This document shows, in pieces, positions 10,670 to 59,365 of a stretch of DNA of 64,000 nt. The stretch comes from an uncultured Candidatus Saccharibacteria bacterium (GTDB lineage Bacteria > Patescibacteriota > Minisyncoccia > Phycocordibacterales > PALSA-1337). Numbering within the stretch: the first letter of the stretch is position 1; the number at the start of each line of letters is the position of its first letter. The stretch is from positions 38,790 to 102,789 of the forward strand of contig CAZBVQ010000002.1 of NCBI GenBank assembly GCA_964495685.1, read 5' to 3'. The notes below the pieces were generated by a model, which was given only the letters and a program-made list of their open reading frames with translations, searched no databases and was not told where the DNA came from. The translations under genes were made by a program, and so were the position numbers.

Positions 10670-10713
10670 GTCGCCGTATACTAACAGAATGCCTGAAAAT
10701 GCGCAACTCAAAT

Positions 10714-10753
10714 CCTAGGCCGGGCCTAGAAATGATTCTAGGCCCGGCCTAGA
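10714..10753. repeat. two inverted copies of the palindromic element CTAGGCCGGGCCTAG / CTAGGCCCGGCCTAG separated by AAATGATT
   Basis: Read directly. Copy 1 is at about 10717-10731 and copy 2 at 10739-10753. The second copy supplies the TAG stop codon of the cysteine desulfurase gene (10751..10749, minus strand). Confidence 0.9.
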
Positions 10754-11909
10754 AAAAAACGCTTCGAATGGCCTTGGTTGCAGCGCGTATATCCCCTTTG
10801 GTGGTCCATCTACCGAAGGAGAAACGGAGTGAAGTGCCGCTATCCACCTTCATGGCCCTCAATACATATGACTCTTCGGCGTCTCGAAGACACGAACTTT
10901 TGGTCGAACAAGCAATGCCACGAGCATCGAGCTGGAAGAGGAAAAATTCGTTATCAATTCCAGGAATAGATACGTTCGCAATATGAGGAGACTGCATATC
11001 CTCATCACCACCATTGACCTGAATGTCAGGCCGGATCTCTTTGAGCTCATTGATGAACATGTCGCGCAACGTTTTGATACGATCCGTTTCTTCAATCCGC
11101 TCTTCGACTGCCAACGTGACCGCTTTGGCGAATCCAGCAATCCCCGGAACATTCTCAGTACCTGACCTGAGCCCCTTCTCTTGTCCCCCACCGTACGTGG
11201 TAGCTCGAATGGGTATACCCCGCTTCACATAGAGACAACCCATACCGCGAGGACCGTATACTTTGCCCGCATCGAGCGTCAGGAGATCTACCCCGAGCTT
11301 CTCGACCAATACGTCTTGGAATAGAAATGCCTGTGCCGCATCAGTATGAAGCATTGGGTACTTGGATTCTAGGCCGGGCCTAGCATTTCGTTCCTTGCGT
11401 ACGAGATGTGCGACCTCGGCGATCGGTTGGATTGAACCGACTTCATTGTTGACCATCATGATGGATACCAGCACCGTATGTGGCTTGAATGATTTCTTGA
11501 GTTCATTCAAGTCGACGATCCCGTGAATGTCCACAGGAATCTGGGTAACCTCACACCCCCACCCCTCTAGAGCGGCGGTCATCTCTAGAATAGAGGAATG
11601 TTCGATAGCGGAAATGATGACATGTGGTCGCTCGATACCAGCTACCCGAGCGGCCTGAATGACACCGCTCAGTGCTAGATTGTTGGCTTCAGTACCACCA
11701 GAAGTGAAAATAATCTCATCTGGCTGGGCATGTATAGCAGAAGCAACGGATGCACGCGAAGCCGCCACTACTTTCTTGGCGGCAACACCCTCCTTGTATA
11801 AGGAAGATGGGTTTGCGTATGCAGATGCAGCATATACACCAATCTCCTTGGTAACTCGTGGATCGATGGGTGTCAGTGATGCGTAATCGAGATATATGCG
11901 TCGGGCCAT
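10749..11909 (-). CDS. cysteine desulfurase (NifS/IscS family, PLP-dependent)
   Basis: NifS/IscS-type sequence: TSGGTEANN, HTDAAQAF, and a SxHK-like region. The start is set at the internal ATG MARRIYLDYASL. It carries an in-frame palindromic-repeat insertion encoding NARPGLES just before HTDAAQ. Confidence 0.85.
   Translation of the reverse strand: MARRIYLDYASLTPIDPRVTKEIGVYAASAYANPSSLYKEGVAAKKVVAASRASVASAIHAQPDEIIFTSGGTEANNLALSGVIQAARVAGIERPHVIISAIEHSSILEMTAALEGWGCEVTQIPVDIHGIVDLNELKKSFKPHTVLVSIMMVNNEVGSIQPIAEVAHLVRKERNARPGLESKYPMLHTDAAQAFLFQDVLVEKLGVDLLTLDAGKVYGPRGMGCLYVKRGIPIRATTYGGGQEKGLRSGTENVPGIAGFAKAVTLAVEERIEETDRIKTLRDMFINELKEIRPDIQVNGGDEDMQSPHIANVSIPGIDNEFFLFQLDARGIACSTKSSCLRDAEESYVLRAMKVDSGTSLRFSFGRWTTKGDIRAATKAIRSVFF
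11369..11383. repeat. copy of the CTAGGCCGGGCCTAG palindrome inside the cysteine desulfurase CDS, in frame
   Basis: Identical 15-mer with the same flank GATT...CTAGC. On the minus strand it is translated as A-R-P-G-L-E. Confidence 0.9.
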
Positions 11910-26166: not shown

Positions 26167-26204
26167 CCAGGCCCGGCCTAGAAATATTTCTAGGCCGGGC
26201 CTGG
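26167..26204. repeat. 38-bp perfect palindrome CCAGGCCCGGCCTAGAAATATTTCTAGGCCGGGCCTGG (two inverted repeat units) plus a degenerate tail CTAGGGCCTGG at 26221-26231
   Basis: Read directly. Same family as 10714-10753. Confidence 0.9.
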
Positions 26205-26234
26205 AATCAGAACTTGGAATCTAGGGCCTGGAAC

Positions 26235-30574: not shown

Positions 30575-31822
30575 TCACGTGAACTTCCTCCGCAAACGGT
30601 GGAACTTAATGGTAAACCGGTGCGCTTCTGCATTGAGTGCGACAATCTCCTTTTCGTATCGTGAAATAAGTTCTGGGTTTCCTATCAATCGGGCCGCTTT
30701 GTGCCGTTCATCTTTGGTGACAGCGATGACAGGTATCGAAACACGGCGGGCTTTGAGCACAGCCTCCGCATGTGCACGATGTGTCTCATTACCGTCGACA
30801 AGAATGAGATCTGGGTACGTCCATTCCGAGTGATTGAGGCGACGCGAAAGTATTTCTACCAGACCACCAATATCATCGTTACTCTGACGAGACATCTTGA
30901 ACGTACGGTACTGATTCGGTGCCAATTCCCCATTTTCAGAGACGACGAATGCTCCGACCACATTTGTACCCGAGAGATGCGCGACGTCATATGCCTCGAT
31001 GCGGAATGGTTCTTTTCGGATTTCGGATTTCGTATTTGTCTCGGATTTCGAATTTCGGATTTCGTTTTTAATTAAAGCAATATCATTGATATGATCCAGT
31101 GCGTAGATCAGCTTCTTCACTTGATCCGCCTCCTCGAATCTCATAGCCTTGGCAGCCGCATGCATCTCTTTCTCCAAACGTGCTTTGACCGTATCTTTCT
31201 TGCCTTCGAAGAAAAGAATCAAGTTATCAATCGTGTATTTGTATCGACGGCGTGCATTGGTATCATCCTCGCGAGGCGAACGACCAAGAGCGCGGTAGAA
31301 CGCATCATGTCGAGCGTCAAATGATTTCTTGTCCTTGAATGGGAACAATTTACGGAGAATTTTGAGAGCTTCTTTGATCAAACCTCCGTGTGGGTAGGGA
31401 CCAAAATAGCGTTTGATACGATAATCAATCGTCCCATCAGTCAGTGCACTATCAAAATCACGTGCACGTGCAAGGAATACACGCGGCCACACTTCGTCGG
31501 TAATAACAACATACTGTGAACTTTTATCATCACGCTCATCAACATTGTAATAGGGTTGATAGCGTTTGATTAGGGTGCTTTCAAGAATGATAGCTTCGAG
31601 TACCGAGTCAGTTTCCTGCCACCTGACCCCTGTAGCTTTGGTGATCATGTCGACAATACGTGGTCCACGCGTTTCGATAAGATCAGCCGCAAAGTAACTC
31701 CGTGTACGATCACGAAGTGACGTGGCGCGCCCAATATACAGTGGTCGACCTTTGGCATTGACGAAGGTGTATACACCCGGCTCGTCGGGCAACTTGACTT
31801 TGGCCAATTCTTGACTAGTCAT
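30575..31822 (-). CDS. uvrC: excinuclease ABC subunit C (short form without the C-terminal HhH region)
   Basis: GIY-YIG N-terminus (PGVYTFVNAKGRPLYIGRATSLRDR), a UVR-like motif (FEEADQVKKLIYAL), and an RNase H-like endonuclease region (EAYDVAHLSG). It contains an in-frame heptamer-repeat insertion. Start set at MTSQELAK (31822). Confidence 0.8.
   Translation of the reverse strand: MTSQELAKVKLPDEPGVYTFVNAKGRPLYIGRATSLRDRTRSYFAADLIETRGPRIVDMITKATGVRWQETDSVLEAIILESTLIKRYQPYYNVDERDDKSSQYVVITDEVWPRVFLARARDFDSALTDGTIDYRIKRYFGPYPHGGLIKEALKILRKLFPFKDKKSFDARHDAFYRALGRSPREDDTNARRRYKYTIDNLILFFEGKKDTVKARLEKEMHAAAKAMRFEEADQVKKLIYALDHINDIALIKNEIRNSKSETNTKSEIRKEPFRIEAYDVAHLSGTNVVGAFVVSENGELAPNQYRTFKMSRQSNDDIGGLVEILSRRLNHSEWTYPDLILVDGNETHRAHAEAVLKARRVSIPVIAVTKDERHKAARLIGNPELISRYEKEIVALNAEAHRFTIKFHRLRRKFT
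31014..31069. repeat. tandem heptamer array (CGGATTT and variants, about 7 units) inside the uvrC CDS
   Basis: Read directly. It contains the 16-mer TTCGAATTTCGGATTT, also found at 44901-44916 inside tktC. Translated in frame as a K/S/E/I/R/N-rich linker. Confidence 0.85.
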
Positions 31823-31851
31823 GAAATACAGAGTACAGTATTCCTTGAACT

Positions 31852-32340
31852 GTGGCAATCACGCCACAAAGAAGCCCCTTGTTACTTATGCCTCATACTA
31901 TTTCTGACCTCAGAGAAAGTGCGCGCTTTGACCCCGAAGGAGACACCTCCTTCTTTATCTTCTGCACCATCGTCAGGTTGGTGACCCTGGGATTTCTGTC
32001 CTGTATCACCGTGGGCGCCTGCTGGAACATTGTTACCCACTTCACGACGACGATGATAGTCATCGTGTCGAGTGTCGCTCTCATCCTACTCATTTATTTT
32101 TTGGGACCCGATGATGATGATTGGTCAAATCGGAGTATTGCAAGCGCACTACTCGTCGTACTGACACTCGCGAGCTTACTCGTCGTCTTGACGGTGTCGA
32201 GCATCTCGATCATCCTCCATTCCTGGAGTGCATTCGGTACATGGGTAGCGCTCACCGTAGCGTATCCGGCGTATTGCCGAATCATACGTCCAGTGATGCG
32301 GTTGTGCATAGATCTCCCCGAGGCACTAGCAGGACGATAA
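31852..32340 (+). CDS. hypothetical multi-TM membrane protein
   Basis: Hydrophobic stretches with a DDDD segment. Start uncertain (MPHTIS at 31888 possible). No family recognised. Confidence 0.35.
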   Translation: MAITPQRSPLLLMPHTISDLRESARFDPEGDTSFFIFCTIVRLVTLGFLSCITVGACWNIVTHFTTTMIVIVSSVALILLIYFLGPDDDDWSNRSIASALLVVLTLASLLVVLTVSSISIILHSWSAFGTWVALTVAYPAYCRIIRPVMRLCIDLPEALAGR

Positions 32341-35187: not shown

Positions 35188-35247
35188 AATGGGCGGAGAA
35201 TATCACGAAAACCGCAAAAAATCAACCGGAGTATCCCTACCCTCGTT

Positions 35248-35262
35248 CTAGGCCGGGCCTAG
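35248..35262. repeat. copy of CTAGGCCGGGCCTAG between the uvrA start and the response-regulator stop
   Basis: Identical 15-mer with the TTCTAGG...CTAGAATCC flank. Confidence 0.9.
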
Positions 35263-35269
35263 AATCCTC

Positions 35270-37898: not shown

Positions 37899-38090
37899 GT
37901 AATTTACCTTCTACTCTTCTTTGAAGTTTTTTTCTTTTTAGAAGATCCTTTCTTTTTCGTAGCCTTTTTCTTTTTTGCCATATATGTGGAGAAAATGTTA
38001 TTAAGGTCGACAGCCTTTAATTGATATGTAAATTATTGTATCACACATCCATTGAAAACAATCTTACTTTTTAAAATAAAATTTAATTTA

Positions 38091-42490: not shown

Positions 42491-42533
42491 AGCGCATCGT
42501 CCCCTCCCGGGCGGTGCGCTGGTTTTTTATATC
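42491..42533 (+). terminator. terminator module AGCGCATCGTCCCCTCCCGGGCGGTGCGCTGGTTTTTTATATC (copy 1)
   Basis: Stem GCGCAUCG / CGGUGCGC with a T-run. An almost identical copy is at 43066-43108. Confidence 0.6.
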
Positions 42534-43065: not shown

Positions 43066-43108
43066 AAGCGCATCGTTCCCTCCCGGGCGGTGCGCTGGTT
43101 TTTTATAT
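43066..43108 (+). terminator. terminator module (copy 2, one mismatch relative to copy 1)
   Basis: AGCGCATCGTTCCCTCCCGGGCGGTGCGCTGGTTTTTTATATC. Confidence 0.6.
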
Positions 43109-43263
43109 CCCGCTTCGCTTCCTCCTCCGCTAAAGCTACAGAGGACAAGCAAGTTTCGCAGGACAAACAAAAAACCGCGCGCCATTCCAGAAATTCTGGA
43201 GTTGCGGCGCGCGGAATCAAGTCGCCATCGGCGGATCACGGTCCGCCATTAATAGCGACAAAA

Positions 43264-44455: not shown

Positions 44456-45523
44456 CTACTTCCTCAACATCACCCTCTGAGCCGCCGCATATATATCCTT
44501 TTCGCCCATACCATAGTGTTCGATAAGCTCATCCGGCTTCCCTGTCTGACCAAACTGATTTTTAACACCAACAAATTCTATCGGCACAGGAAAATGTGCA
44601 GCCAAACATTCTGCTACCGCTGATCCCAGCCCTCCAGCAATCTGATGCTCTTCAACGGTAACAATTCCGCGAGTCTCATGAGCGAGTTTGATAACCGCAT
44701 GTTCGTCGAGCGGTTTGATCGTATGCACATTGAGCACTATTACTTCCTTCCCTTCTTCTTCCAGCTTCTGTGCGACCTTGAGTGCCTTGAACAAGAGTGC
44801 GCCTGTAGCGATGATGCCGACAGATTGTTTACTATTTTGTATGTTGAATTTGGAATTTGTTTCGGATTTTCCTCCGTCGGTACGCCCCGCTGGGCGCGTA
44901 CTTCGAATTTCGGATTTAAATACTATCTGCACCTTCCCTATCTCAAATGGCGTATCTTCGGTGGTAATTATCGGTGTCTTCTCGCGAGCTAGACGAATAT
45001 AGGTCGGGTCTGGAGTTTTCGCAGCAGCCAGAGTCGCCTTCTTGGCTTGAATGGCATCACAGGGTGAAATGACTACCATGCGCGGCAAGACACGGGTGAT
45101 GGCGATATCTTCGAGTGCTTGGTGACTTCCCCCATCGGGACCCACGGAAACACCTGCGTGTGAACCAGCAATCTTGACCGGCTGATTGTTGTAACAAATA
45201 GTCGTGCGAATCTGTTCCCAATTCCTGCCTGGACTGAAAACGGCGTATGAACTGACGAATGGGATTTTACCCATAGCGGCCATTCCAGATGCGACACTGA
45301 CCAGATTTTGTTCAGCCACACCGATCTCCACGAATCGTTCTGGGAATTTCTCTTTGAACTTCAACATCTGCGTCGACTCTGTAAGGTCTGCGCATAGACC
45401 GACAATATTCTTGTCCATTTCAGCCGCCTTCAAAAGCCCTTCACCAAATCCTTTACGAATAGGAACTTGCTCGACTGCTGGGTCGAAGAGTTTTTGATTG
45501 AGTTTGAGGGAGGGGTTGAGCAT
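44456..45523 (-). CDS. transketolase, C-terminal (pyrimidine-binding) subunit, with an in-frame insertion
   Basis: Transketolase C-terminal half (VAEQNLVSVASGMA...HTIKPLD). It carries a roughly 27-aa insertion (RSTRPAGRTDGGKSETNSKFNIQNSKQ) encoded by repeat DNA at 44846-44920. Confidence 0.85.
   Translation of the reverse strand: MLNPSLKLNQKLFDPAVEQVPIRKGFGEGLLKAAEMDKNIVGLCADLTESTQMLKFKEKFPERFVEIGVAEQNLVSVASGMAAMGKIPFVSSYAVFSPGRNWEQIRTTICYNNQPVKIAGSHAGVSVGPDGGSHQALEDIAITRVLPRMVVISPCDAIQAKKATLAAAKTPDPTYIRLAREKTPIITTEDTPFEIGKVQIVFKSEIRSTRPAGRTDGGKSETNSKFNIQNSKQSVGIIATGALLFKALKVAQKLEEEGKEVIVLNVHTIKPLDEHAVIKLAHETRGIVTVEEHQIAGGLGSAVAECLAAHFPVPIEFVGVKNQFGQTGKPDELIEHYGMGEKDIYAAAQRVMLRK
44846..44920. 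repeat. repeat element inside tktC: GAATTTG/CGGATTT heptamers flanking a GC hairpin (GTACGCC...GGCGCGTAC); shares TTCGAATTTCGGATTT with the uvrC array
   Basis: Read directly. Confidence 0.8.
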
Positions 45524-47511: not shown

Positions 47512-47518
47512 GACATTT

Positions 47519-47533
47519 CTAGGCCGGGCCTAG
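47519..47533. repeat. copy of CTAGGCCGGGCCTAG in the 25-nt spacer between rpiB and rpe
   Basis: Identical 15-mer, 5 nt from the rpiB stop and about 7 nt from the rpe start. Confidence 0.9.
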
Positions 47534-47536
47534 GAA

Positions 47537-48004
47537 TTATTCAATCGCATCTATCTGTTCAATCCGTCTCTGGTGTCTCTCATCTCCACTGAAAGGTGTA
47601 CTCAACCAAACTCCCACAGCATCACATGCTCCATCTGCATCGACATATCGCGCACCTATGGAAAGTACATTGGCATCATTGTGCTCGCGTGACTTCTTCA
47701 GGATATCCTGATCCCCACCATACCAGACCGCAGCACGGACTCCGGGGAAGCGATTGGCGACCATGGCTTCACCCTGCCCTGATGCACCGAAAATGATGGC
47801 TTTGGTATTCCCGGTAATATCTTCGGCGACTTTGAGCGCAGCGGCCGACATGAAAACGGGATAATCATCGCCGTCTACCAGCTCATGCGCCCCCACGTCG
47901 AGAACGGTGTACATATCTGCATGTTCACGTGCCAGAAATGCTTTGACGGCTTCTTTGGCGGCGAAACCAGCGTGATCGGAGGCGAGGATGATAGTGGTGT
48001 TCAT
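47537..48004 (-). CDS. rpiB: ribose-5-phosphate isomerase B
   Basis: MNTTIILASDHAGF and an RpiB/LacAB fold of 155 aa. Confidence 0.88.
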   Translation of the reverse strand: MNTTIILASDHAGFAAKEAVKAFLAREHADMYTVLDVGAHELVDGDDYPVFMSAAALKVAEDITGNTKAIIFGASGQGEAMVANRFPGVRAAVWYGGDQDILKKSREHNDANVLSIGARYVDADGACDAVGVWLSTPFSGDERHQRRIEQIDAIE

Positions 48005-48103
48005 GCCCCTATCTTAGCACACTAGTTTTCTTTTTGTTCACCAACTAATAGAGCCCCCGAGACGATCGTCACAGCAAGCATTCCAGGCGTAGCTACCTAT
48101 AAC

Positions 48104-48478
48104 CTATTGATTTGGATACCTAACATTTGAAGTAGACGTATCATTCACATAAACTGTCGCTGGTTTTTCTAGTCGATTACAACGTCTGCCGAGAGATAAT
48201 TGCAGATCGCAATTAGTACCGAAAACATATACGGCTCCAACTGATACCAGAATAATTACTACAAATGTCACGCTTCTAATCGTGAGACTCTGAATAGCGA
48301 AAATCAAATGACCGATAAGCCAGGCCAAAAATAAAGCCAGAAACGGTGACAACAAGAATACTGGTATCAAAAACTCTCCACCATCTGTTACTTGGTCCGA
48401 GATAAGAATCAAAACAACCGCACTGAGAGCAAAAGCTGGTAACAAACCAATAACTACTCGCTTAAAGATATTTGTCAT
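48104..48478 (-). CDS. hypothetical multi-TM membrane protein
   Basis: 124 aa, hydrophobic. Preceded by conserved leader element copy 1. Confidence 0.45.
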   Translation of the reverse strand: MTNIFKRVVIGLLPAFALSAVVLILISDQVTDGGEFLIPVFLLSPFLALFLAWLIGHLIFAIQSLTIRSVTFVVIILVSVGAVYVFGTNCDLQLSLGRRCNRLEKPATVYVNDTSTSNVRYPNQ

Positions 48479-48483
48479 GTTTT

Positions 48484-48562
48484 TTAATTATTACACTAAC
48501 CTCCCCGCTCTGATCACCTGCCCCACCACTGTATACATGTACCCATCTCATTATCACGTTAG
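48484..48562 (-). promoter_or_regulatory. conserved leader element, copy 1 (in gene orientation: ...GTATAC..GTGG.GCA.GTGATCA.AGCGGGGAG.TTA...TAATAATTAA then ATG)
   Basis: About 80% identical to 49469-49547 over roughly 50 nt. Contains TGATCA and GTATAC palindromes. Confidence 0.5.
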
Positions 48563-48566
48563 AACT

Positions 48567-49466
48567 TTATCTCGTAATGGTGAAATACTTATCACTCGTA
48601 TCGACAATGCCTCTTCCTCCTCCATAATTTGTCACCCCAATTTCTATTTTATAGTTACCTGGAGAAAGGCTGAATCTGTCCTCGGGCAAACTCGATGTCT
48701 TACCTATACACATAGTAGTCGCAGGAGTAAAAATAAAGACTCCTTGTTTCGCTGAAACTTCTCCATCAACAGGATCACAGAAATCAGAGAAGTCTGTCCC
48801 CGATCTAAGTCTGATAGCAACTTTGGCGTCATTAGATAAACCCGATGATGTCCACTTGATCGATTTTGATTCAGACATTTTCCAGATCTCTCCGCCATTA
48901 GGAGAAATAATGGTTATGGAAGGGACTGAAACAGGCTGTGTCACGGGACTATTAGTCGTCTCACTTACTTTAGGTTGAGCTGAGATTGTAAACAGCTCGC
49001 TCTTATTCCCTACCCCCACAATTTCTCCAGTTGAATAAAGACCTATGCGATATTTACCAGGCTGTACAACTCCTTGAACTTCGTCGCCTTGAATAATCCA
49101 GCTAAACGAGCCTGAGTTTGGCGATCCTTGAGAAATTTTTCGAACCGTATTGCCATTCTGGTCAATAAGATTAATGCCAATCCCTGCCGTATTAATGTCC
49201 ATTCCCAATCCACTGGAATTCCAATTAATCTTCAAATTGTCTCCAATTTTATATGTCTCTCCGTTTTTCGGCGAAGTAATCATAATTGAAGGCGAAGCAG
49301 CTGGTTGTGATGTTACTGAGGCATCATCAGTTTGATTAACTTGGGGTTGCTGTTGGTCAATACTTACTGATTTTTTAATAAATGCAAAATAACCGACAGC
49401 AACTAAAAGAACAATTATAAGTACAATCAACCAAATATTTACTGATCCCTTTTGTGTATTCTTCAT
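48567..49466 (-). CDS. secreted/anchored protein with two tandem beta-sandwich-like repeats
   Basis: N-terminal TM segment. Repeat units ITSPKNGETYKIGDNLKINWNSSG...GKYRIGLYS...ELFTI and IISPNGGEIWKMSESKSIKWTSSG...GNYKIEIGV...KYFTI. Confidence 0.5.
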   Translation of the reverse strand: MKNTQKGSVNIWLIVLIIVLLVAVGYFAFIKKSVSIDQQQPQVNQTDDASVTSQPAASPSIMITSPKNGETYKIGDNLKINWNSSGLGMDINTAGIGINLIDQNGNTVRKISQGSPNSGSFSWIIQGDEVQGVVQPGKYRIGLYSTGEIVGVGNKSELFTISAQPKVSETTNSPVTQPVSVPSITIISPNGGEIWKMSESKSIKWTSSGLSNDAKVAIRLRSGTDFSDFCDPVDGEVSAKQGVFIFTPATTMCIGKTSSLPEDRFSLSPGNYKIEIGVTNYGGGRGIVDTSDKYFTITR

Positions 49467-49468
49467 AA

Positions 49469-49547
49469 ATTTAAATTATTAAATTAATCTCCCCGCCTTG
49501 ATCACATGCTCCACAAGCGTATACGTATACCCCATTTCGTTGTTATA
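49469..49547 (-). promoter_or_regulatory. conserved leader element, copy 2
   Basis: See copy 1. It lies immediately upstream of the ATG at 49466. Confidence 0.5.
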
Positions 49548-49768
49548 CCATGCGGGTAATTTTTCCCTGTTTTTTGTCATATTGCAGAAATTATATCATG
49601 AGTTCAATCTTTAAATCTCCGTTCGCCCGTCTTTTGAAACAGCAAAAATTTGTAGTCTCAAAAGGCGAGCGAGAGATAAAATATGCTGTCAATGTTCTTG
49701 CTTTACATGATAAACAAACACTTGTTTAATAGCAAGCGCTGAAATATGGCCTGAACACTGCTTAATTC

Positions 49769-50740
49769 CTAGCAATGAACAGCTCTTGTTCTTGGAATCT
49801 TGTATTTCTTGTGTCTCTGGTTTCTTGGTACATTTCTGAAGGAATCGTAACGACGCTGGAGATCGGGACCGGTCATCATCGTATAAATCATCGAACTCTC
49901 AAGACTTGAGTGACCGAGAATATTTGAAACGTCTGAATTTGATCCGCCCTTGTTCACAATATCTCGACCCATATAATGTCGCATTGAGTGCGCATTCATT
50001 GTTGGTATACCAGCACGGTTAGAATTAGTGCGGAGCATTTCAGCCACGTTGAAGGTGGTCATTCTTTTTCCTCTCACATCATTCTGACCACACTTTGAAA
50101 CTGTAACAAATAGCGCATCGAGGTCTTCAAAGCTAAATAGTTTATATAAATGTTTTCTCTTGCTTACCCACTTTTTGAGGAGAGCATTTGTGGTTGGTGT
50201 CCAAAAAATTTCACGAATCGGTCTACGACCGCGTGATTTTTCTGTGCGTATGAGCGCTTTGCGATTATCCAAATCAAGATCGCCAACATTTAAAGAAACG
50301 ATCTCGCCGTTTCGAGCGCCCGTATCCCAGAGTAATGATATGACTGCCCTGTTTCTAATGTGATGAGGATTATTACCCTTTGGAATAGAGTTAAGTAATT
50401 TTTTGAAACCTTGTTCAGTTGCAATTCGAGGTATGTTGTACTCTTTCTTGGGGGTTGGAATAAGAAATTCATTAATAACTTTAAAGCCTTGAAGGTTATA
50501 AAATTCAAAGAATTTCTTGAGGGCCAAGGTGACAATACGAATGCCGTTTCTTTTCCAGCCGAGCTCTGTCATCAAATTCAAATAATCCATCACGTGCTGA
50601 ATAGTGATGTTTTCTATATGCGGATTTTTGAGATAGAGACAAAAGATGCGAAGCACTTTGTCGTATCGTTTGACCGTATGACCGGTCACTTTGATCTGTC
50701 TCCAACCGCTGAATTGGTCGATAGCGTCTTTGAATAGCAT
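49769..50740 (-). CDS. tyrosine-type site-specific recombinase/integrase
   Basis: C-terminal catalytic region AHSMRHYMG...LGHSSLESSMIYT (R..H..R..Y residues) and an N-terminal SAM-like domain. Confidence 0.85.
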   Translation of the reverse strand: MLFKDAIDQFSGWRQIKVTGHTVKRYDKVLRIFCLYLKNPHIENITIQHVMDYLNLMTELGWKRNGIRIVTLALKKFFEFYNLQGFKVINEFLIPTPKKEYNIPRIATEQGFKKLLNSIPKGNNPHHIRNRAVISLLWDTGARNGEIVSLNVGDLDLDNRKALIRTEKSRGRRPIREIFWTPTTNALLKKWVSKRKHLYKLFSFEDLDALFVTVSKCGQNDVRGKRMTTFNVAEMLRTNSNRAGIPTMNAHSMRHYMGRDIVNKGGSNSDVSNILGHSSLESSMIYTMMTGPDLQRRYDSFRNVPRNQRHKKYKIPRTRAVHC

Positions 50741-51154
50741 ACATGGCCAACCAAAAAGCCCACTCGATGCTACTCAAAGTGGACTTCTGGTGGCCGTCTG
50801 CTCATAGAGCTTATTGCCATTCCCTAGCTAGGGAGACATAACCTCGCGGTCACATCATCAACATTTTCCCCTATCCTTTAGGAAATAGCAAGGTCATGTT
50901 TTGATCAAAAGTCCATCGGTAGCATCAGGTCATTCTGACCCTGATCCCTTACGGGGCGATGGAGCATATTCGGTTGTCACTACATCCTAGTGTAGTGCCT
51001 TTCCATTGTCAAGAAGGATATTTCATTGGATAGTAATATGGAGAGCAGAACATCAAAATAGTCAATTAAAATAAGGCTTTTTTGAGATATATAAAGAAAA
51101 GTCACATCACCTTTTAAGCAATGCGACTGTGTTTTTCGGAAAATGATCTATTTG

Positions 51155-52153
51155 TCAGAGCTTTTCCCGAATCTGCTCCAAAAAGGCAGCGATGCTCATA
51201 TCCAAGGCCGGTAAATGCCCTTGAGCGTCAATTTCGATAGGTAATGATACCCTCGGATTCTTGCTCAAAAGCTCACTTATCGTCATTTTGGACCCCATAA
51301 GGCTGAAGATTTCGATGCTGATATCAAGGCAAAGCCTCGACAAGTCTCGTGCTCCTTCAGTCGGCAGACTTGCCCACTCCTCGATCCTGCCGAATGGAAG
51401 GATGTATGGATAAGCACAACTGAAACCGTCTGGGGTTCGGACCGGCATCAAACTTTGCGATGTCTGCTCACCGATGACACGTCCACAGTTCGGACTGAAT
51501 GGGATGAGGTCGTGATCGGGAATCCAATCAATGAGATCTTTGATCGGATGCACCATCACAATCTCGCCGGTAAATACTTCCTGAATAGTTGATCGTGAGC
51601 CATTACAACAGAATCCGAGAATGATCGCCGTAACCTTGATACTTCTGCTTTCAAGCTCATGGAGGACAAACTTGAGTGTGCCTCCAGTGAATGCACCGTC
51701 TTCAATTAGCACGATTGAACGACCGGCGATCTTCTCGGTTAGCTCATCAAGCTGTGTCCCCAGCGGATCGAATCCTGGACGCGGACCATACCCTATCATC
51801 ACTCCGTCTGAATTAAACAACCGATTGATGTTGAGGAGTAAACCTTCGCTTTTTGGATTTGAGTCTGCGATCTCGAAGCAGGTGCTGAGAACTGCTTGCT
51901 GACTGAGGTCGGTGATACGACCATCGACTTGTTCCCAGATTTTTCGCCGAAGCTCATTCATCTCGATTGTGTCGATCGTGATGCTTGGCAGAGCTCGTTG
52001 TATCTTTTTAAACAAACCGATGTGGAAGCGCTCAAACAATAAATCATCCGGCTGTGGGACAGCAAAGCCTTTTGCACGGAATGACTGAAGCCGACTGGCA
52101 ACATCGTAGGTAACCACATAGGTTCCACGACGATCCGAATGGATTTCTGACAT
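51155..52153 (-). CDS. phosphoribosyltransferase (PRTase)-domain protein of unknown specificity
   Basis: PRPP-binding motif SIVLIEDGAFTGGTL in the middle of a 332 aa protein. The flanking regions match no family I recognise. Confidence 0.5.
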   Translation of the reverse strand: MSEIHSDRRGTYVVTYDVASRLQSFRAKGFAVPQPDDLLFERFHIGLFKKIQRALPSITIDTIEMNELRRKIWEQVDGRITDLSQQAVLSTCFEIADSNPKSEGLLLNINRLFNSDGVMIGYGPRPGFDPLGTQLDELTEKIAGRSIVLIEDGAFTGGTLKFVLHELESRSIKVTAIILGFCCNGSRSTIQEVFTGEIVMVHPIKDLIDWIPDHDLIPFSPNCGRVIGEQTSQSLMPVRTPDGFSCAYPYILPFGRIEEWASLPTEGARDLSRLCLDISIEIFSLMGSKMTISELLSKNPRVSLPIEIDAQGHLPALDMSIAAFLEQIREKL

Positions 52154-52235
52154 GGAAACCTCCTATGGTTGAATTGTTTATGGAAAAGAACTGATTGAAA
52201 TCAGTTCTCAGTGTATCTCTATATCAATGAATTAG

Positions 52236-52559
52236 CTAATTATTCCCCTCATCCTTCATTCGATCGATGAGCATTTTGTATCCGCCACAGCCTTCTTTGA
52301 GCCAACGATTAATTTTGGTGATTGTCACGGGAGACTCGCCTGACTCCTCTTGAATCTGAGAAAAAGGAACGCCTGCATCAAGCTTCTTGGCAACCTCCCA
52401 GCGCATGGCAAATTCTCGGAGATCACGCTCACTCATCAGGTCACGGAAGAATGCTTTGAGTTCATCCTCGTTTTTGAGCGACAAAAAAGCCTTGATCAAA
52501 TCGGGAGATTTTTGTTGTATCTCAGCCCATATTCCGTTTTTTTCTTCATCAGGAATCAT
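52236..52559 (-). CDS. TrpR-like YerC/YecD family DNA-binding protein
   Basis: FFRDLMSERDLREFAMRWEVAKKL...GESPVTITKINRWLKEGCGGY is close to the YerC/YecD consensus. Confidence 0.75.
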   Translation of the reverse strand: MIPDEEKNGIWAEIQQKSPDLIKAFLSLKNEDELKAFFRDLMSERDLREFAMRWEVAKKLDAGVPFSQIQEESGESPVTITKINRWLKEGCGGYKMLIDRMKDEGNN

Positions 52560-52577
52560 ATTTAATAAATTATAACA

Positions 52578-53330
52578 TTACTTCCCTTTCCAGTGAACCA
52601 CTCGATTTTCGATAAACATCATTATTTTGTTCAATACAAATCCGATGACACCAGTCATGAGTATAGCTGCGTACATATCAGCTGTTTGGTACACAAGTTG
52701 AGCATCAATAATACGTTTTCCAAGACCTGCTTCAGTACCGATAAACATTTCAGTAACGATGACGATTATGAGGGAGAGTGAGATCGCGACACGGAAGCCC
52801 GAAAAGATTTGTGGCAATGCTTCAGGAAAAATGACCTTCCGGAAAAGTTCAAATCCTTTCACTTTCATTGTTTTGGCAACACGCACACGTAACTCTTTGC
52901 CGAGGTGTACTCCGTACATTGAGTTAATAAGGATCACCAGACCAGCTCCCCATGCAGTGACGGCAAATTTAGCCTGATCGCCAATTCCAAATACAAGAAG
53001 AAATAGAGGAAACAATGCTGTTGTCGGAATGCCTCGAAAAAACTCAACAGTGAATTCAAGAGCATTGTAAATCTTACTTGAATAGCCCATGAGAAGTCCG
53101 AGTGGTACTCCAATAATTGCCGCAACAGCAAAGCCAACCAGAACACGATATAGTGTGTGCCCTATGTCATTCAACATTGTTCCATTTTGGATTGAATCAA
53201 TAAGGTGGATAAATACATCATATGGAGATGCTAGGAATAGAGGACTGACAAGTTGTAAATATGAAATTACCCACCAGAGGCAGAGTAGAATTATCGGTAT
53301 CAGAACGTAATATAATTTCTTATTTTTCAT
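52578..53330 (-). CDS. ABC transporter permease (nitrate/sulfonate/taurine/ThiX type)
   Basis: Six TM segments and a binding-protein-dependent transport motif (ALNSMYG...). Confidence 0.85.
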   Translation of the reverse strand: MKNKKLYYVLIPIILLCLWWVISYLQLVSPLFLASPYDVFIHLIDSIQNGTMLNDIGHTLYRVLVGFAVAAIIGVPLGLLMGYSSKIYNALEFTVEFFRGIPTTALFPLFLLVFGIGDQAKFAVTAWGAGLVILINSMYGVHLGKELRVRVAKTMKVKGFELFRKVIFPEALPQIFSGFRVAISLSLIIVIVTEMFIGTEAGLGKRIIDAQLVYQTADMYAAILMTGVIGFVLNKIMMFIENRVVHWKGK

Positions 53331-54072
53331 ATTCGAAAGTATTTAGAATTGCATTACGAAGCTCGGTAAATTCAGGACTTGAAAGCATATCGAGGGTTCT
53401 TGGGCGTGGAAGTTTTACCTCAAAAATCTTTTTTATACTCGCGGGGCGAGGAGAAAGTACTACTACTTTATCGGCCAGAAAAATTGCCTCGTCTATATCA
53501 TGACTTACAAATAAAGTAGTTATCTTTTTCTCTTGCCAAATATCGAGAAGCTCCAATTCCATCTTTCGCGTGGTTGAATAATCAAGAGCAGAAAATGGCT
53601 CATCCATAATCAGAATATCTGGGTCATAGGCAATAGAGCGACATATAGAAACAAGCTGACGTTGACCGCCAGAGAGTTCGTAGACAAACCTATCTTTTGA
53701 GTGAAGTAGACCCACCTTGTTCAATAAGTGCTCAGCGATTTTTTGCTGCTTATCCTTATTGACTCTCGCAATCTCGAGTGGAAAAACAATATTTTCCAAA
53801 ACTGTCCGCCAAGGGAATAGGCTCTCGTTATAATTCTGAAATACAAAACCCACTTGAGCATCTTTAGGATTTTTGCCGCTTACCTTTACTTCACCTGATT
53901 CAGGGATTTCAATTCCAGCAACAATATTGAGTAGAGTTGTTTTACCTGATCCATTCGGGCCGAAAACAGTTACGAATTCACCTTTATTCACCTCAAGGTC
54001 AATGCCGTCAATAACTCTGGTATCACCAGAATCTTTTTTAAAGGTTTTTGCTATTCCGGCAAGTGAAATCAT
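53320..54072 (-). CDS. ABC transporter ATP-binding protein
   Basis: GPNGSGKTTL Walker A, LSGGQRQLVSICRS signature, ILIMDEPFSALD Walker B. Confidence 0.9.
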   Translation of the reverse strand: MISLAGIAKTFKKDSGDTRVIDGIDLEVNKGEFVTVFGPNGSGKTTLLNIVAGIEIPESGEVKVSGKNPKDAQVGFVFQNYNESLFPWRTVLENIVFPLEIARVNKDKQQKIAEHLLNKVGLLHSKDRFVYELSGGQRQLVSICRSIAYDPDILIMDEPFSALDYSTTRKMELELLDIWQEKKITTLFVSHDIDEAIFLADKVVVLSPRPASIKKIFEVKLPRPRTLDMLSSPEFTELRNAILNTFEYEK

Positions 54073-54078
54073 TACAGT

Positions 54079-55035
54079 CTATTTGTAATACGCATTGGTC
54101 AAATCTGGTTTTGATGTGAACTCTCCAGAGGCGACTAAAATGTCAAGTAATTTAGCAACAAGAGTTTTATCTATCTGCTGCGAATTTCTAAAGTAAGTCA
54201 TCCCGAGAACATCAACTACTTTCTGATCTAGCTTGAAAAGTGTCCTCGTCATATCCCTTACGTCTTTATCATTTGTATGGAGATAATCGAAAGCCCGATC
54301 AAAAGCATTTACAACTTTCTTAGCCTCACGAGGATGATTATTCACAAATTGAGTGCTTACGAGCGCTACCCCTAATGGACTGTGCTCTAATTGTTCAGAA
54401 TAGACTGAACCATAAATCTTCCTTATTCCACCACTTGTAAGTGCGATAGATATTGTAGGTTCATATGTGAATAAGGCGTCAATTGAACCTGCTGTAAGCG
54501 CAGTGAGGTGTTGTGGTGGTGGTAATTGTACAAATTGGATTGTGGAAGAATCTATGCCCTTTTCCTTAAGAAAAAGTTTGAACATATTTGAAGCACTCGT
54601 GCCTGGAAATACCCCAATCTTTTTGCCCTTCAAATCCTCGAGAGTCTTAATGGTAGAGTTTTCTTTTACCAAAAGGGAGTCAAACGGCACATCGCTCGTA
54701 ATATCAGTTAGAGCGATAATTTTCATTTTGCCAGGATCAACCATTTCAGCATTCAGATATGGAAGTATAGATATTTCAGGAGTGAGATCTATGTCTCCCC
54801 GAGCAAGCGCATCAACAATTTGATTTGAGGTCTGAAGTTGTGTGGCTTGAACAGTGATACCCTGATCTTCAAAAAACTTTTTCTGTTGAGCTATTTCTAA
54901 AGGAAGTTGGCTGGCTGTTATAGGTAGATATCCAATTTTTACCACATAGTCTGAGGGTTTATTTGAGCTTCCGATCCGAACAGCTACTAAAGCCAACACT
55001 ACTACGATTCCTATTATCCAAAATGATTTTTTCAT
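54079..55035 (-). CDS. ABC substrate-binding protein, NMT1/THI5/SsuA-like (paralogue 1)
   Basis: Signal peptide, then IGYLPITASQLPL. The C-terminal SKPDLTNAYYK is shared with the paralogue at 56931. Confidence 0.8.
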   Translation of the reverse strand: MKKSFWIIGIVVVLALVAVRIGSSNKPSDYVVKIGYLPITASQLPLEIAQQKKFFEDQGITVQATQLQTSNQIVDALARGDIDLTPEISILPYLNAEMVDPGKMKIIALTDITSDVPFDSLLVKENSTIKTLEDLKGKKIGVFPGTSASNMFKLFLKEKGIDSSTIQFVQLPPPQHLTALTAGSIDALFTYEPTISIALTSGGIRKIYGSVYSEQLEHSPLGVALVSTQFVNNHPREAKKVVNAFDRAFDYLHTNDKDVRDMTRTLFKLDQKVVDVLGMTYFRNSQQIDKTLVAKLLDILVASGEFTSKPDLTNAYYK

Positions 55036-55165
55036 GCTAATAAAATTAATGTTTTTTGATAAAATCTGAATTCTAAAGGCTTGCAACATTCTACCACAAA
55101 TGATGCCCCGTGTGTAGTTTTTTTAGGATTTTTGGACTCTAATCAAAAGAAGGACAATTAGAATA

Positions 55166-55864
55166 CTATTGCATAGCACTGTCCTTACCTAGAATCGCCT
55201 TATTTAAATACATGAAAGGAATGTTCACCAACCCGACCAACCACTTGATTGCTGTTTGTCCGATTATAAGAGGCATGATTGGTAATGTACCCAGAAATGC
55301 TATTGGAATAAATATCAAACTATCCAGAAGTAATGCAGGTATAGAACTGAATACATTTCTAGACCACAAATGCTTACCATTGGTAAATTTCTTGAACCAT
55401 GAATACACATAGGCATCGAAGTTTTCGGTAATAAGAAATGCTATCCAGCTTGCAATTGTAATTCTTGGAACTAAATTGAAGATCTGCTCCCATGATCCCT
55501 GAAGTGTCCAAAATGGTGCCGCAGGAAATTTGACTCCAAGCCAGAAAAAGAACATCATCGCTATCTGAGATACAAAAGCGATCATAATCATCTTAGAGAC
55601 TTCCCTTCTCCCAAATTTTTCATTCACTATGTCAGTGAAGAGATATGTAATAGAAAAAACAAGAACCCCACTTGGCCCGTAGAATGCACCAAACCCGAGA
55701 TCGAAAGCGGAAATCTTTGCAGCCAAAACTTGTGCAACCAACACAAATGTCACATACAATCCAATAAGTAAATCAGATCTATTGTATTTTCGGGCATACC
55801 AGCTTCCGAGAAGTGTAAAACTGGTAATACCCACAATCCAGATTATTAGTAGATATATGCTCAT
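55166..55864 (-). CDS. queuosine-precursor transporter YhhQ (DUF165) family
   Basis: VFSITYLFTDIVNEKFGRREVSKMIMIAFVSQIAMMFFFW matches the YhhQ core. Multi-TM. Confidence 0.7.
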   Translation of the reverse strand: MSIYLLIIWIVGITSFTLLGSWYARKYNRSDLLIGLYVTFVLVAQVLAAKISAFDLGFGAFYGPSGVLVFSITYLFTDIVNEKFGRREVSKMIMIAFVSQIAMMFFFWLGVKFPAAPFWTLQGSWEQIFNLVPRITIASWIAFLITENFDAYVYSWFKKFTNGKHLWSRNVFSSIPALLLDSLIFIPIAFLGTLPIMPLIIGQTAIKWLVGLVNIPFMYLNKAILGKDSAMQ

Positions 55865-55871
55865 ATGCTGT

Positions 55872-56591
55872 TTATTTTAACTTAATCCTATAATTTATCC
55901 AAACAAAACCATCTTCGCTTCTTTCATGTCTCTCTACCACCTGATATCCATAGTCGTTTATCATTTTTTCTATTATCTCAAAATCGTGACGAGGCTCTAA
56001 GGTATGTGCACTTTGAAGATTGGCGTGCGGTAAATGAATGATCCCTTCTCTACTCAAGAAAATTTTTGCCTCAGTAAAAAATCGCTTGTGTAATGTAAAA
56101 TCATTATCGTATAGAGCCTGGTCAATAAAATCATTGCCCGCAGGAAAATTTACAAAAGGTAAATTTGCAATAATGAGATCATATTTTTTACTTGGATAAT
56201 TTGAGAAAAGGTTAGATGAAAAAACTGTTATCTTGTCCTGTAAACCATTAAGCAATACATTGTGTTCGGCGCACTCAACCGCTTGAGGATTAATGTCAGA
56301 GCAATCTACGTGCACCGCACCAGCAAGTGACGCAACGATTGATTGGACTCCAGTGCCACATCCAATGTCTGCGACATTGAAGCCTCTTAAATCGCCGAAT
56401 GTTTCAAAAACAGACTTTGAGCTTGGTGCATGATCTGGAGGAAATACAGTTGGAAATACATCTATAAGAACTGACTTATCTTCAAAATTTATTTTGGTAC
56501 GATAAATACCTTCTATGGATTTATTTTTTAGGAATGAGGAAAATTTCTTAGTGTGCTCTGGATTAATTTTTGTTATAGGGTCTAAGGTCAT
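55872..56591 (-). CDS. class I SAM-dependent methyltransferase (HemK/RsmC-like, NLPF variant of the NPPY motif)
   Basis: ADIGCGTGVQS (motif I) and DLIIANLPF (motif IV). Confidence 0.65.
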   Translation of the reverse strand: MTLDPITKINPEHTKKFSSFLKNKSIEGIYRTKINFEDKSVLIDVFPTVFPPDHAPSSKSVFETFGDLRGFNVADIGCGTGVQSIVASLAGAVHVDCSDINPQAVECAEHNVLLNGLQDKITVFSSNLFSNYPSKKYDLIIANLPFVNFPAGNDFIDQALYDNDFTLHKRFFTEAKIFLSREGIIHLPHANLQSAHTLEPRHDFEIIEKMINDYGYQVVERHERSEDGFVWINYRIKLK

Positions 56592-56597
56592 GATCGT

Positions 56598-56918
56598 TTA
56601 GTCTTCTATCCAAACCTGTGCTGGGCGATGAGCATCAGAATGCTTTATATCTATGAATATTTTTAGATATTTCGGTTTAATCGATTCTTTCACTTGAGAA
56701 AATACTTCATGCGCCAGTTCTTCAGCTGTAATTTTATTTCTTGCAATCTCATTAACCGCTCGCTCAGCATCAACATACTCAAGTGCTCTTTTTTTGGGAT
56801 GATATTCAATGACAACATCTCCTGAAAATTCCTTGTCAGTGACAGAGCAAATAGCCTTAAAGGGTATGAATATCTTTGTGCCGCTAATCTTATAGCCCAA
56901 TGGTATTGTCCCGATCAT
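56598..56918 (-). CDS. QueF-like T-fold protein (possible preQ0 reductase homologue, divergent)
   Basis: Parallels unimodular QueF: CSVTDKE vs CPKTGQPD, VVIEYHP vs IEYIP, KPKYLKIF vs DPRYIEVW. It lacks the ESKSLKLY motif. Context is next to a YhhQ-family gene. Confidence 0.35.
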   Translation of the reverse strand: MIGTIPLGYKISGTKIFIPFKAICSVTDKEFSGDVVIEYHPKKRALEYVDAERAVNEIARNKITAEELAHEVFSQVKESIKPKYLKIFIDIKHSDAHRPAQVWIED

Positions 56919-56930
56919 TGTTTTTCCAAT

Positions 56931-57890
56931 CTAAGGCTTATAGAAAAAATTTGAGAGATCCGGTTTTGATTTAAGTTCGCCTATCGAGATCAGCCAATTA
57001 AGCCACTCGTCATTTTTCTGAATATCGATTGTTCTACCAAATCTAGTAGGTAGAATTGACATCAGGCTTGTGGCATCCTCACTGATGTTTGACTTTTCAG
57101 CTATGAGTTTCTTTGTTGCGACCTCATTGTTCAAAGCGTAGTCGTTAGCCTTCTGAAAAACCTCGACAACATCTTTCGCAAGAGACGCATGTCCTTCTAT
57201 GAATTTCTCTGAGATGATACCGACAGCAAAAGGTGAATCAGGTACATTTTCAGTATAGAGAGATCCTGAAACCTTTCGTGCAATTCCTTTTGAAATCGCT
57301 ACTGAAGTATTTGGTTCATATGAATACAACGCATCAACAGACCCAACTTCGAGGGCTTGAAGATAATTTTGTGGAGAAAGAGGAATGATTTCTACCTTTG
57401 ACACGTCAACTGAGTTTTTTACGAGTGAAGCTTTCAAGATGTTTGTTGCGGTACTGCCCGGAAACACTGCAACTTTTTTGCCATCGAGATCCTTAAGTGT
57501 TTTTATTGATGAATCAATCTTAGTTATGACAGCATCACCTGGATCTTTAGTAAAATTCATTATCGAAAATCCCTTTACCCCCTTTGGATCAATAAGCTGG
57601 GCAACATATACGGGGATACTTGAAATGTTAGGCACTAGATCAACATCGTTTCGGACAACTGCTTCAAGGGCTTGATTGGAACTCTGGAAAGGGATGATCT
57701 CAACTTTTATTCCAGCTTTTTGAAAAAGATTTTGCTGCTCAACAATCCATATAGGTAAGGCTGCGATCGTTGCGGTTGGTAAGTACCCGATCTTGACTGT
57801 TGTGTCATCTTTCGGCTGCTTAAAAAATGCAAAACCAACTACGATAACGATAACAATCACTATTAATGCCCACAAATATTTTTTAGTCAT
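56931..57890 (-). CDS. ABC substrate-binding protein, NMT1/THI5/SsuA-like (paralogue 2)
   Basis: Same architecture as paralogue 1 (IGYLPTATIAALPI, SKPDLSNFFYKP). Confidence 0.8.
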   Translation of the reverse strand: MTKKYLWALIVIVIVIVVGFAFFKQPKDDTTVKIGYLPTATIAALPIWIVEQQNLFQKAGIKVEIIPFQSSNQALEAVVRNDVDLVPNISSIPVYVAQLIDPKGVKGFSIMNFTKDPGDAVITKIDSSIKTLKDLDGKKVAVFPGSTATNILKASLVKNSVDVSKVEIIPLSPQNYLQALEVGSVDALYSYEPNTSVAISKGIARKVSGSLYTENVPDSPFAVGIISEKFIEGHASLAKDVVEVFQKANDYALNNEVATKKLIAEKSNISEDATSLMSILPTRFGRTIDIQKNDEWLNWLISIGELKSKPDLSNFFYKP

Positions 57891-57943
57891 AAAAGTTAGT
57901 AATAAATCTATGGCTCTAGGGCCAATCTATATAATTTGTTATA

Positions 57944-59364: not shown

Positions 59365-59365
59365 G

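Follow-up and report, generated by a model that had tools for sequence, protein, structure and literature searches.

A Full-Length Copy of a Dispersed Heptamer-Block Element Serves as an Inter-Domain Linker of UvrC in a Candidatus Saccharibacteria Genome

In a 64,000-nucleotide (nt) stretch from an uncultured Candidatus Saccharibacteria bacterium (GenBank assembly GCA_964495685.1, contig CAZBVQ010000002.1, positions 38,790 to 102,789; hereafter the window), an array of CGGATTT-like heptamers lies inside the DNA repair gene uvrC. Here we show that this tract is a full-length, in-frame copy of a dispersed element, built of four AAATYCG heptamers, a 4-nt ARAC junction and three further units, and goes beyond a loose microsatellite. 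A first-pass annotation, made from the sequence alone, had described the array as possibly prone to slipped-strand length change and as pointing to a second mobile repeat family that tolerates coding sequence; the family proves much larger than was guessed there, extending over metagenome-assembled genomes (MAGs) of many phyla. The tract itself is a harmless linker, and its family is unexpectedly well defined and widespread. The uvrC copy was probably acquired as a block, a reading to which we assign a probability of about 0.6.

Results

The uvrC Tract Has the Architecture of a Dispersed Element

Seven heptamers and one 4-nt junction occupy positions 31014-31069, where the minus-strand gene reads them in frame (Table 1). 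On the coding strand the layout reads AAAAACG AAATCCG AAATTCG AAATCCG / AGAC / AAATACG AAATCCG AAATCCG / AAAAG; the non-unit sequence TTAATT directly before the four-unit block gives it a sharp 5′ boundary, and the AGAC junction changes the heptamer phase, with S-E-T-N as the resulting peptide. Tandem Repeats Finder (TRF) reports the tract at 31014-31064 with period 7, 7.7 copies, 74% matches, 12% indels and a score of 60, the highest in the window, and the longest run of identical units is two. These results bear out the array within the uvrC frame that the first-pass annotation had described, and its frame arithmetic also holds, in that a change of one 7-nt unit shifts the frame and a change of three units (21 nt) preserves it.

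The relation to elements elsewhere was measured with a profile, R1, built from 17 foreign elements and containing no window sequence. R1 matches uvrC nearly from end to end (31013-31072 on the minus strand, model positions 4-63 of 65, 49 bits, E 2.7e-14) and also matches a second gene of the window, encoding the C-terminal subunit of transketolase (tkt), over model positions 4-62 (35 bits, E 6.3e-10), placing a 27-nt insert between units 3 and 4; the calibration was shortened and all R1 E-values are therefore rough. Nothing else in the 64-kb window is found by R1, the next best match having an E-value of 0.61. Over 699 kb of foreign loci, R1 gives 161 matches at E ≤ 1e-3, about 30 of which are near full length, and the majority of these ~30 lie outside the set from which the profile was built.

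The foreign loci also define the internal order of the element, which is 53-57 nt long. Four AA-initial heptamers precede the junction in 19 of the 22 distinct foreign junction-bearing elements, and in none of these 19 is the fifth heptamer upstream unit-like. Array ends (n = 195) continue into AAAT, a new unit, in 95 cases, and the commonest non-unit continuation is AAAC (21 cases). Perfect arrays in the foreign loci contain three units in 83 cases, four in 48, five in 7 and more than five in 4. The plan of four units, junction and three units seen in uvrC is found, as 4 + AAAC + 3, in the foreign element L052b. Around 139 arrays we found no conserved flanks or termini (~0 bits of flank information, nothing beyond partial units). 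All units are direct in both the uvrC and the tkt copies, palindromic pairs being limited to some intergenic copies elsewhere. A fixed reading frame of the element was considered and rejected, as uvrC, tkt and L105 use one frame and L107 another.

The 16-mer TTCGAATTTCGGATTT, which the first-pass annotation had reported as shared between uvrC and tkt, occurs exactly twice in the window, at 31047-31062 (uvrC) and 44902-44917 (tkt); the identity is exact, and the position given for the tkt copy (44901-44916) was one base off. Allowing up to two mismatches, there are 4 matches against 0.09 expected, a number reached in none of 100 shuffles, and TTCGNATTT occurs 8 times in the 64 kb, confined to the uvrC and tkt loci. 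A chance or compositional artefact is ruled out by the shuffles together with the R1 search. As a sign of copying between the two genes, however, the 16-mer fails: it aligns units 2-3 of uvrC with units 1-2 of tkt, off register by one unit relative to ARAC, and is therefore a family signature, or unit vocabulary, and not a trace of direct copying from one gene to the other. It is also found in 25 viral contigs, about a dozen of them, unrelated, with heptamer context and the junction (AAATYCG)n-AAAC-AAAT. Aligned in the ARAC-anchored register, the uvrC and tkt copies are only ~74% identical (manual count).

The Element Is Widespread and Often Translated

A pattern of three consecutive units was searched in species-representative genomes, where about 2 chance matches are expected in 596 Gb under uniform base composition. 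At least 120 stretches were found; among the matches listed, all titles are those of MAGs, and the taxa are Verrucomicrobiota, Acidobacteriota, Planctomycetota, Chloroflexota, Bacteroidota, Deltaproteobacteria, Patescibacteria, Omnitrophota and others. The same element layout is present in unrelated viral contigs. Within about 12 kb beyond the window ends, we found no further copy.

By a crude open reading frame (ORF) classification of 142 foreign arrays, 77 are internal to ORFs, whereas 26 are close to the start of a gene and 33 close to the end of one. Where an array is at least 300 nt from both ends of a long ORF, AAATYCG is on the sense strand in 22 of 28 cases (22:6, p = 0.004). Hosts identified by Pfam that read the element in this orientation, with the peptide KSEIRNP, are RecJ (Taylorbacteria), UvrA (Verrucomicrobiota), TsaD (Roizmanbacteria), a class I aminoacyl-tRNA synthetase, PheT, a GT4 glycosyltransferase, DnaE, a glycogen-debranching enzyme, an FtsX-type permease and a fused methylmalonyl-CoA mutase. 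The RecJ, UvrA, TsaD, aminoacyl-tRNA synthetase, PheT and DnaE cases are plain arrays of the heptamer, and the GT4 glycosyltransferase carries a full-length element copy between its two domains. In the opposite, RISDFGF orientation, the Pfam-identified hosts are ArsA (at amino acid (aa) 368, between two ATPase-domain matches), GcpE and an RHS-repeat protein. In Roizmanbacteria TsaD (L089, 4655-4684), the array peptide IRNSKFEIRN seems to be a same-length substitute for the residues that we take to precede AVT-GPGL in E. coli TsaD, a comparison that hints at patch replacement and not insertion.

Arrays also adjoin start codons, tRNA genes, a 23S rRNA gene and hairpins that resemble terminators. 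Facing half-elements form long imperfect palindromes, and thus potential hairpins, in L006, L018, L052, L091 and L109. In L018 (~100-260, a viral contig) paired elements are found among tRNA genes, and in L091 (~3100-3310, a Planctomycetia MAG) they lie some hundreds of bases outside a 23S rRNA gene, on its 5′ side; both pairs may be transcribed spacers. Rfam gives no match to the uvrC region at E ≤ 1, and in 11 element-bearing loci its only matches, to tRNAs, a 23S rRNA and a glycine riboswitch, lie away from the elements.

Period 7 is favoured more generally in the loci L031-L150 (843 kb), which contain 197 period-7 arrays against 2-8 for each of periods 5, 6 and 8-10. Perfect arrays of at least three copies of AAGAATT, ACTCTCC, AATTAGG, AATCCGC, ATCCGCC and AATGACC also occur there.

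The uvrC Copy Encodes a Variable Linker Predicted to Be Disordered

Pfam places the domains of the window UvrC at aa 27-104 (GIY-YIG), 224-249 (UVR) and 279-413 (UvrC_RNaseH); no HhH domain was detected by Pfam, and the protein ends after the RNase H-like domain. The true start is likely Met13 at 31822, giving 415 aa, and the homologue P0001 (415 aa) is 100% identical. The closest homologues belong to Patescibacteria (Parcubacteria: Taylorbacteria, Pacebacteria and relatives), and among the matches listed, P0001-P0120 are all short, at 404-479 aa.

The element-encoded peptide NEIRNSKSETNTKSEIRKEP makes up nearly the entire predicted-disordered linker from the UVR motif to the RNase H-like nuclease domain, in line with the K/S/E/I/R/N-rich linker proposed in the first-pass annotation. 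Indeed, AlphaFold2 with an alignment of orthologues gives a confidence score (predicted local distance difference test, pLDDT) below 50 at residues 261-282, the sole long low-confidence segment inside the protein. Across 120 UvrC homologues, the segment from HINDIALIK to FRIEAYD is unconserved and varies from 9 to 54 aa, and the KSEIR-type linker is restricted to the P0001 species and a 98%-identical variant, P0121; lineage specificity of the linker, which the annotation had left to an alignment of orthologues, is thus supported. The tract is missing from relatives whose amino-acid identity is 78% or less, and their linkers are unalignable; the linker is 20 aa in the window against 12-16 aa in the nearest relatives. 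In another Patescibacterium, the UvrC linker (P0115) carries a different translated repeat, IPAKAGIQ...LDSRLHGNDK, which suggests that this site accepts further repeat families too.

The uvrC Copy Is Stable

The protein P0001 is encoded identically on seven contigs; two of these, L026 and L027 from two further samples, were compared as DNA and match the window at 100% over 4.5-5.8 kb. A sister lineage encoding P0121, recovered from three samples (L151-L153), differs at 50 of 1248 nt in uvrC (96.0% identity) and yet has neither a substitution nor an indel in the 57-nt tract. No tract length variant was found among assemblies from at least five samples, the 96%-identical lineage included. Slipped-strand length change, as envisaged in the first-pass annotation, thus finds no support: the units are imperfect, with runs of two at most, and their number is the same in L026, L027 and L151-L153. 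A 23-mer spanning the left flank and first unit of the tract has 0 matches in the Joint Genome Institute (JGI) metagenomes, and the species is therefore absent from that collection.

The tkt Copy Is Older

The tkt element lies between the Pfam domains Transket_pyr (aa 19-183) and Transketolase_C (aa 225-344). Its coding strand reads AAATCCG AAATTCG AAGTACG, the 27-nt insert, AAATCCG / AAAC / AAATTCC AAATTCA ACATACA, with the AAAC junction at 44859-44862, and the degenerate heptamers AAATAGT AAACAAT extend the array down to 44824. Among relatives, the linker from FEIGKAQxVF to DVGIIATG may be as short as a few residues or exceed 50 aa, and in many of them it has the same peptide style (KSEIRNPK, SETNSKF, IQNSKQ). 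The element is recovered in diverged form in related species (L030, 36 bits, full length; L248, 36 bits; L028, 24 bits), is reduced to a remnant in L246 and is absent from L247, the latter two being too diverged for exact boundaries. The element-free linker site of L247 reads F-K-S-E-K-P-D-V-G. Because related species share it in diverged form, the tkt copy is old and not a recent insertion. The uvrC copy is the younger, since its units are nearer the consensus and it is limited to the species and its sister lineage.

The 27-nt G+C-rich insert is private to the window lineage, being absent from the sister-lineage genes L028 and L030, and with its flanks it forms the hairpin GUACGCGCCCAGCGGGGCGUAC; the 101-nt tkt region folds at -20.8 kcal/mol (z -2.6). 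This hairpin was considered as a mobile unit and rejected: its 18-mer core has 92 metagenome matches, none with the full hairpin or heptamer context, and these matches are put down to chance. Short G+C hairpins stand beside heptamer arrays also at L032, L125, L115 and L133.

The Unit Is Open in All Frames and Unstructured

None of the six frames of the uvrC tract contains a stop codon, and whichever of the three sense frames is read, a perfect (AAATCCG)n yields one and the same cyclic heptapeptide, K-S-E-I-R-N-P. The RNA of the uvrC tract has a predicted minimum free energy of -2 kcal/mol against a shuffle mean of -7.5, and 200 of 200 shuffles fold at least as well. The open frames, the hydrophilic K/S/E/I/R/N/P peptide of the commoner orientation and the unstructured RNA together fit persistence in linkers that tolerate changes of length. 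Freedom from stops was also considered as a sufficient reason for this particular unit and is ruled out, because freedom from stops in six frames is shared by 50% of all heptamers.

Table 1. Elements, units and host genes on the minus strand of the window
Feature	Position	Strand	Basis
Short-form uvrC (GIY-YIG, UVR, RNase H-like)	30575..31858	-	Pfam, homologue comparison
Codons for UvrC aa 265-284, inter-domain linker NEIRNSKSETNTKSEIRKEP	31007..31066	-	In-frame translation
Full-length heptamer-block element in uvrC	31012..31069	-	Sequence, TRF, profile R1
Four-heptamer block, 5′ half of uvrC element on coding strand	31042..31069	-	Sequence, foreign elements
4-nt junction AGAC in uvrC (family landmark ARAC)	31038..31041	-	
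Three further uvrC units, AAATACG AAATCCG AAATCCG	31017..31037	-	Same 4 + AAAC + 3 plan in foreign L052b
uvrC units as read on the + strand, first part	CGGATTT 31017, CGGATTT 31024, CGTATTT 31031, GTCT spacer 31038-31041	+	
uvrC units as read on the + strand, continued	CGGATTT 31042, CGAATTT 31049, CGGATTT 31056, CGTTTTT 31063	+	
Transketolase C-terminal-subunit gene (tkt)	44456..45523	-	Pfam
Second heptamer-block element, in tkt linker	44835..44920	-	Sequence, profile R1
27-nt (9-codon) G+C-rich insert in tkt element, roughly RPAGRTDGG	44870..44896	-	Absent from L028, L030

Discussion

Origin of the uvrC Copy

In the reading that we favour, the uvrC element would derive from an element that already existed and would have been copied into a recent ancestor as a block. 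Possible routes are ectopic recombination, a repair patch made on a template, or some mobilisation as yet unknown. The older UvrC linker would seemingly have been replaced and not simply extended, because the linker is 20 aa here and only 12-16 aa in the nearest relatives. Of the second mobile, coding-tolerant repeat family that the first-pass annotation saw in the 16-mer, the family, the tkt copy and the in-frame copies in housekeeping genes stand; the mobility does not stand as claimed there, given the lack of conserved flanks or termini and a tkt copy that is not recent. Mobility of the element is something we infer, unproven as it is. We also infer that, in uvrC, the element has no function of its own beyond its role as a linker.

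Several observations weigh against acquisition as a block. No copying mechanism is visible, as neither terminal inverted repeats, target-site duplications nor an associated enzyme were found. The same foreign loci are strongly enriched in period-7 arrays of several other units as well, so a general heptamer-generating slippage exists and could build tracts in place. The first tkt unit overlaps native K-S-E codons that are also present in the element-free L247 (AAGTCAGAA), which fits seeding in situ. The source genome shows two element copies in the ~76 kb scanned, leaving their abundance in this genome unproven, and the absence of substitutions in 57 nt at 4% divergence has a chance of ~0.10, so that the case for stability rests mainly on the absence of indels. 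Furthermore, the foreign gene calls are crude, Pfam having been run on 17 ORFs only.

Growth in place is the alternative that survives best, although we consider it unlikely. Here a chance AAATCCG-like proto-repeat would have grown by slippage, with in-frame lengths selected, and the likeness to tkt and to other genomes would be convergence. The dominance of period 7 in the foreign loci, the unique flanks of the arrays, the native K-S-E codons at the tkt site, which resemble one unit, and the tolerance of linkers for any length all agree with such growth, as does the reported abundance of heptanucleotides, given as the commonest long simple-sequence repeats of prokaryotes in two papers on heptamer families (PMC4679880, PMC4692102). 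However, slippage predicts variable unit counts and idiosyncratic interruptions, and what is seen is four units before ARAC in uvrC as in 19 of 22 foreign elements. A profile free of window sequence matches uvrC end to end, the length has not changed over 4% divergence, and, with half of all heptamers open in six frames, tolerance alone does not explain the reuse of a single unit.

A bolder version of block acquisition, which we regard as quite unlikely, is that the four-heptamer/ARAC element is actively propagating across phyla, possibly carried by phages, and is written as a block by an undescribed mechanism that can overwrite short segments of essential genes in frame; the writing might be done by templated patch synthesis during break repair or by a dedicated enzyme recognising four heptads. 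If true, the element would be a recurrent source of new disordered linkers, and would form a class of coding-tolerant mobile DNA without termini or target duplications.

Two further explanations appear distinctly improbable. The first is a classical miniature transposable element, such as a MITE or a Rickettsia palindromic element, mobilised by a transposase in trans. The Rickettsia elements are palindromic, ~100-150 bp long, restricted to Rickettsia, and lie in frame in conserved genes, where they encode a surface-exposed peptide and the function of the protein is kept. Dispersed copies with a conserved internal order, inverted pairs that make long imperfect palindromes, and the occupation of conserved protein-coding genes in frame by a short repeat all recall such elements. 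The present element differs from those of Rickettsia in being 53-57 nt long, built of heptamers, non-palindromic in its coding copies, which are single arms, and spread over many phyla. Terminal inverted repeats, a target-site duplication and conserved flanks are absent, the change of the linker from 12-16 to 20 aa looks like replacement and not insertion, and the sole recombinase noticed in the window, a tyrosine integrase, is ~19 kb away in a low-G+C region and unlinked.

The second is a functional nucleic-acid signal kept in uvrC, for example heptad iterons to which a DNA- or RNA-binding protein binds cooperatively, or an unstructured RNA that tunes translation or transcript processing, and to this we likewise give little credence. 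An architecture conserved across phyla, arrays beside start codons, terminator-like hairpins, tRNA genes and a 23S rRNA gene, and the exceptionally low predicted RNA structure would suit it, as would the preference for four units also reported for GGGAATC repeats (PMC4692102). Nothing links such a role to uvrC, however, and relatives at 78% amino-acid identity do without the tract; no Rfam family matches, and in-frame copies occupy unrelated genes in both orientations.

Least credible is a phase-variable contingency locus, in which gain or loss of a 7-nt unit would toggle uvrC and create a reversible mutator state: the period, not being a multiple of three, would indeed let a single-unit change shift the frame, but no run exceeds two identical units, the seven contigs carry an identical protein and the two DNAs compared are 100% identical across the region, the sister lineage from three runs shows no tract indel, uvrC is a housekeeping repair gene and not a surface, virulence or restriction-modification target, and elsewhere the element lies in essential genes (DnaE, PheT, aminoacyl-tRNA synthetase, TsaD) where switching off would be lethal. 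The uvrC copy behaves as ordinary stable coding sequence, and a slippage switch is very unlikely, given the constant length, runs of at most two identical units and the presence of the element in genes that cannot be switched off.

Comparison with Known Heptamer Repeats

Dispersed tandem heptamers with many copies per genome and with unresolved origin and function have been described as GGGAATC in Xanthomonas and GGGGA(C/T)T in Nostoc (Rehm et al., 2015; PMC4692102). Like those repeats, the AAATYCG arrays take positions close to ORF starts and ends, and in the same rotation GGGAATC and CGAAATC are alike at 5 of 7 positions (manual comparison). The differences are larger. The GGGAATC-type repeats are G-rich and form G-quadruplexes, which the authors gave as the reason for a preference for four units (PMC4692102), whereas AAATYCG lacks G-tracts and is predicted to be unstructured; a four-unit preference without G-tracts raises the question of whether four heptads reflect something more general. 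The GGGAATC-type repeats are also under-represented in coding regions (PMC4692102), in contrast to the AAATYCG element, which is in frame in many housekeeping genes and, unlike them, has a fixed ARAC junction and a second block of units.

The TAACTGA repeats of marine Beggiatoaceae, cyanobacteria and some Bacteroidetes form arrays of 2-6 copies (MacGregor, 2015; PMC4679880). They share with the present family a single favoured heptamer, often directly upstream of start codons, and a patchy distribution across distant phyla with no evident transfer mechanism (PMC4679880). In TAACTGA, however, stops in the forward orientation largely exclude the repeat from coding sequence, whereas AAATYCG is open in six frames and is translated.

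Period 7 is the dominant class of longer prokaryotic simple-sequence repeats according to Mrazek and co-workers (2007), as this work is cited in PMC4679880 and PMC4692102, and STRR heptamers of heterocystous cyanobacteria (Calothrix) are cited in PMC4692102. The present element resembles such repeats in its head-to-tail period-7 copies and in the dominance of period 7 in the foreign loci sampled. Simple-sequence repeats are defined by a variable unit number, whereas in the element four units and the junction are fixed and the uvrC copy is invariant. Contingency loci such as those of Haemophilus influenzae have long perfect tracts, unit numbers that vary between strains, and surface or restriction-modification targets (PMC2651432). 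The uvrC tract is like them in being a tandem repeat within an ORF with a period that is not a multiple of three (PMC2651432), and it shows none of these three hallmarks.

In the literature searched, AAATCCGAAATCCG, KSEIRNP, IRNPKSE and RISDFGF do not occur as strings, and CGGATTTCGGATTT has a single occurrence, in an unrelated Phaeobacter paper. Heptamer families (STRR, TAACTGA, GGGAATC) have been noted for decades, mostly between genes in the published cases, and how they arise, spread and function is unresolved. In-frame copies in conserved genes provide alignable states before and after in orthologues, and could make the origin answerable by comparative genomics, the choices so addressable being block insertion, patch replacement and unit-by-unit slippage. 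The element is, furthermore, one concrete route by which essential proteins renew the disordered linkers between their domains. In annotation, the peptides KSEIRNPK and RISDFGF mark the element and should not be taken as a protein motif, a domain signature or evidence of a contingency gene.

Other Repeats and Features in the Window

The palindromic repeat TTCTAGGCCGGGCCTAGAA is present in seven copies, some as tandem pairs (10713-10756, 11367-11387, 26167-26208, 35246-35266 and 47517-47537), most of them directly 3′ of minus-strand gene ends. These copies look like terminators or repetitive extragenic palindromic (REP)-like elements, and this is probably the first repeat family implied when the first-pass annotation spoke of a second. 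Two 43-nt copies, 98% identical and 576 nt apart (42491-42533 and 43067-43109), each comprise a G+C-rich hairpin with a T-run after it (AGCGCATCGTCCCCTCCCGGGCGGTGCGCTGGTTTTTT) and resemble intrinsic terminators.

The second-strongest tandem repeat of the window, TCTTTTTAGAAGATTTTT at 37915-37975, has period 18, 3.4 copies and a TRF score of 59. Across ~48000-64000, and on past the right end of the window (L250, 1-10000), the G+C content drops from ~0.50 to 0.37-0.44. The tyrosine integrase is encoded within this region (49769-50740), and just past the right end of the window, in the same genome, lie genes for an Amidase_2 protein, for a LysM protein and for several large proteins without a Pfam match. 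The low-G+C region may be an integrated phage-like element.

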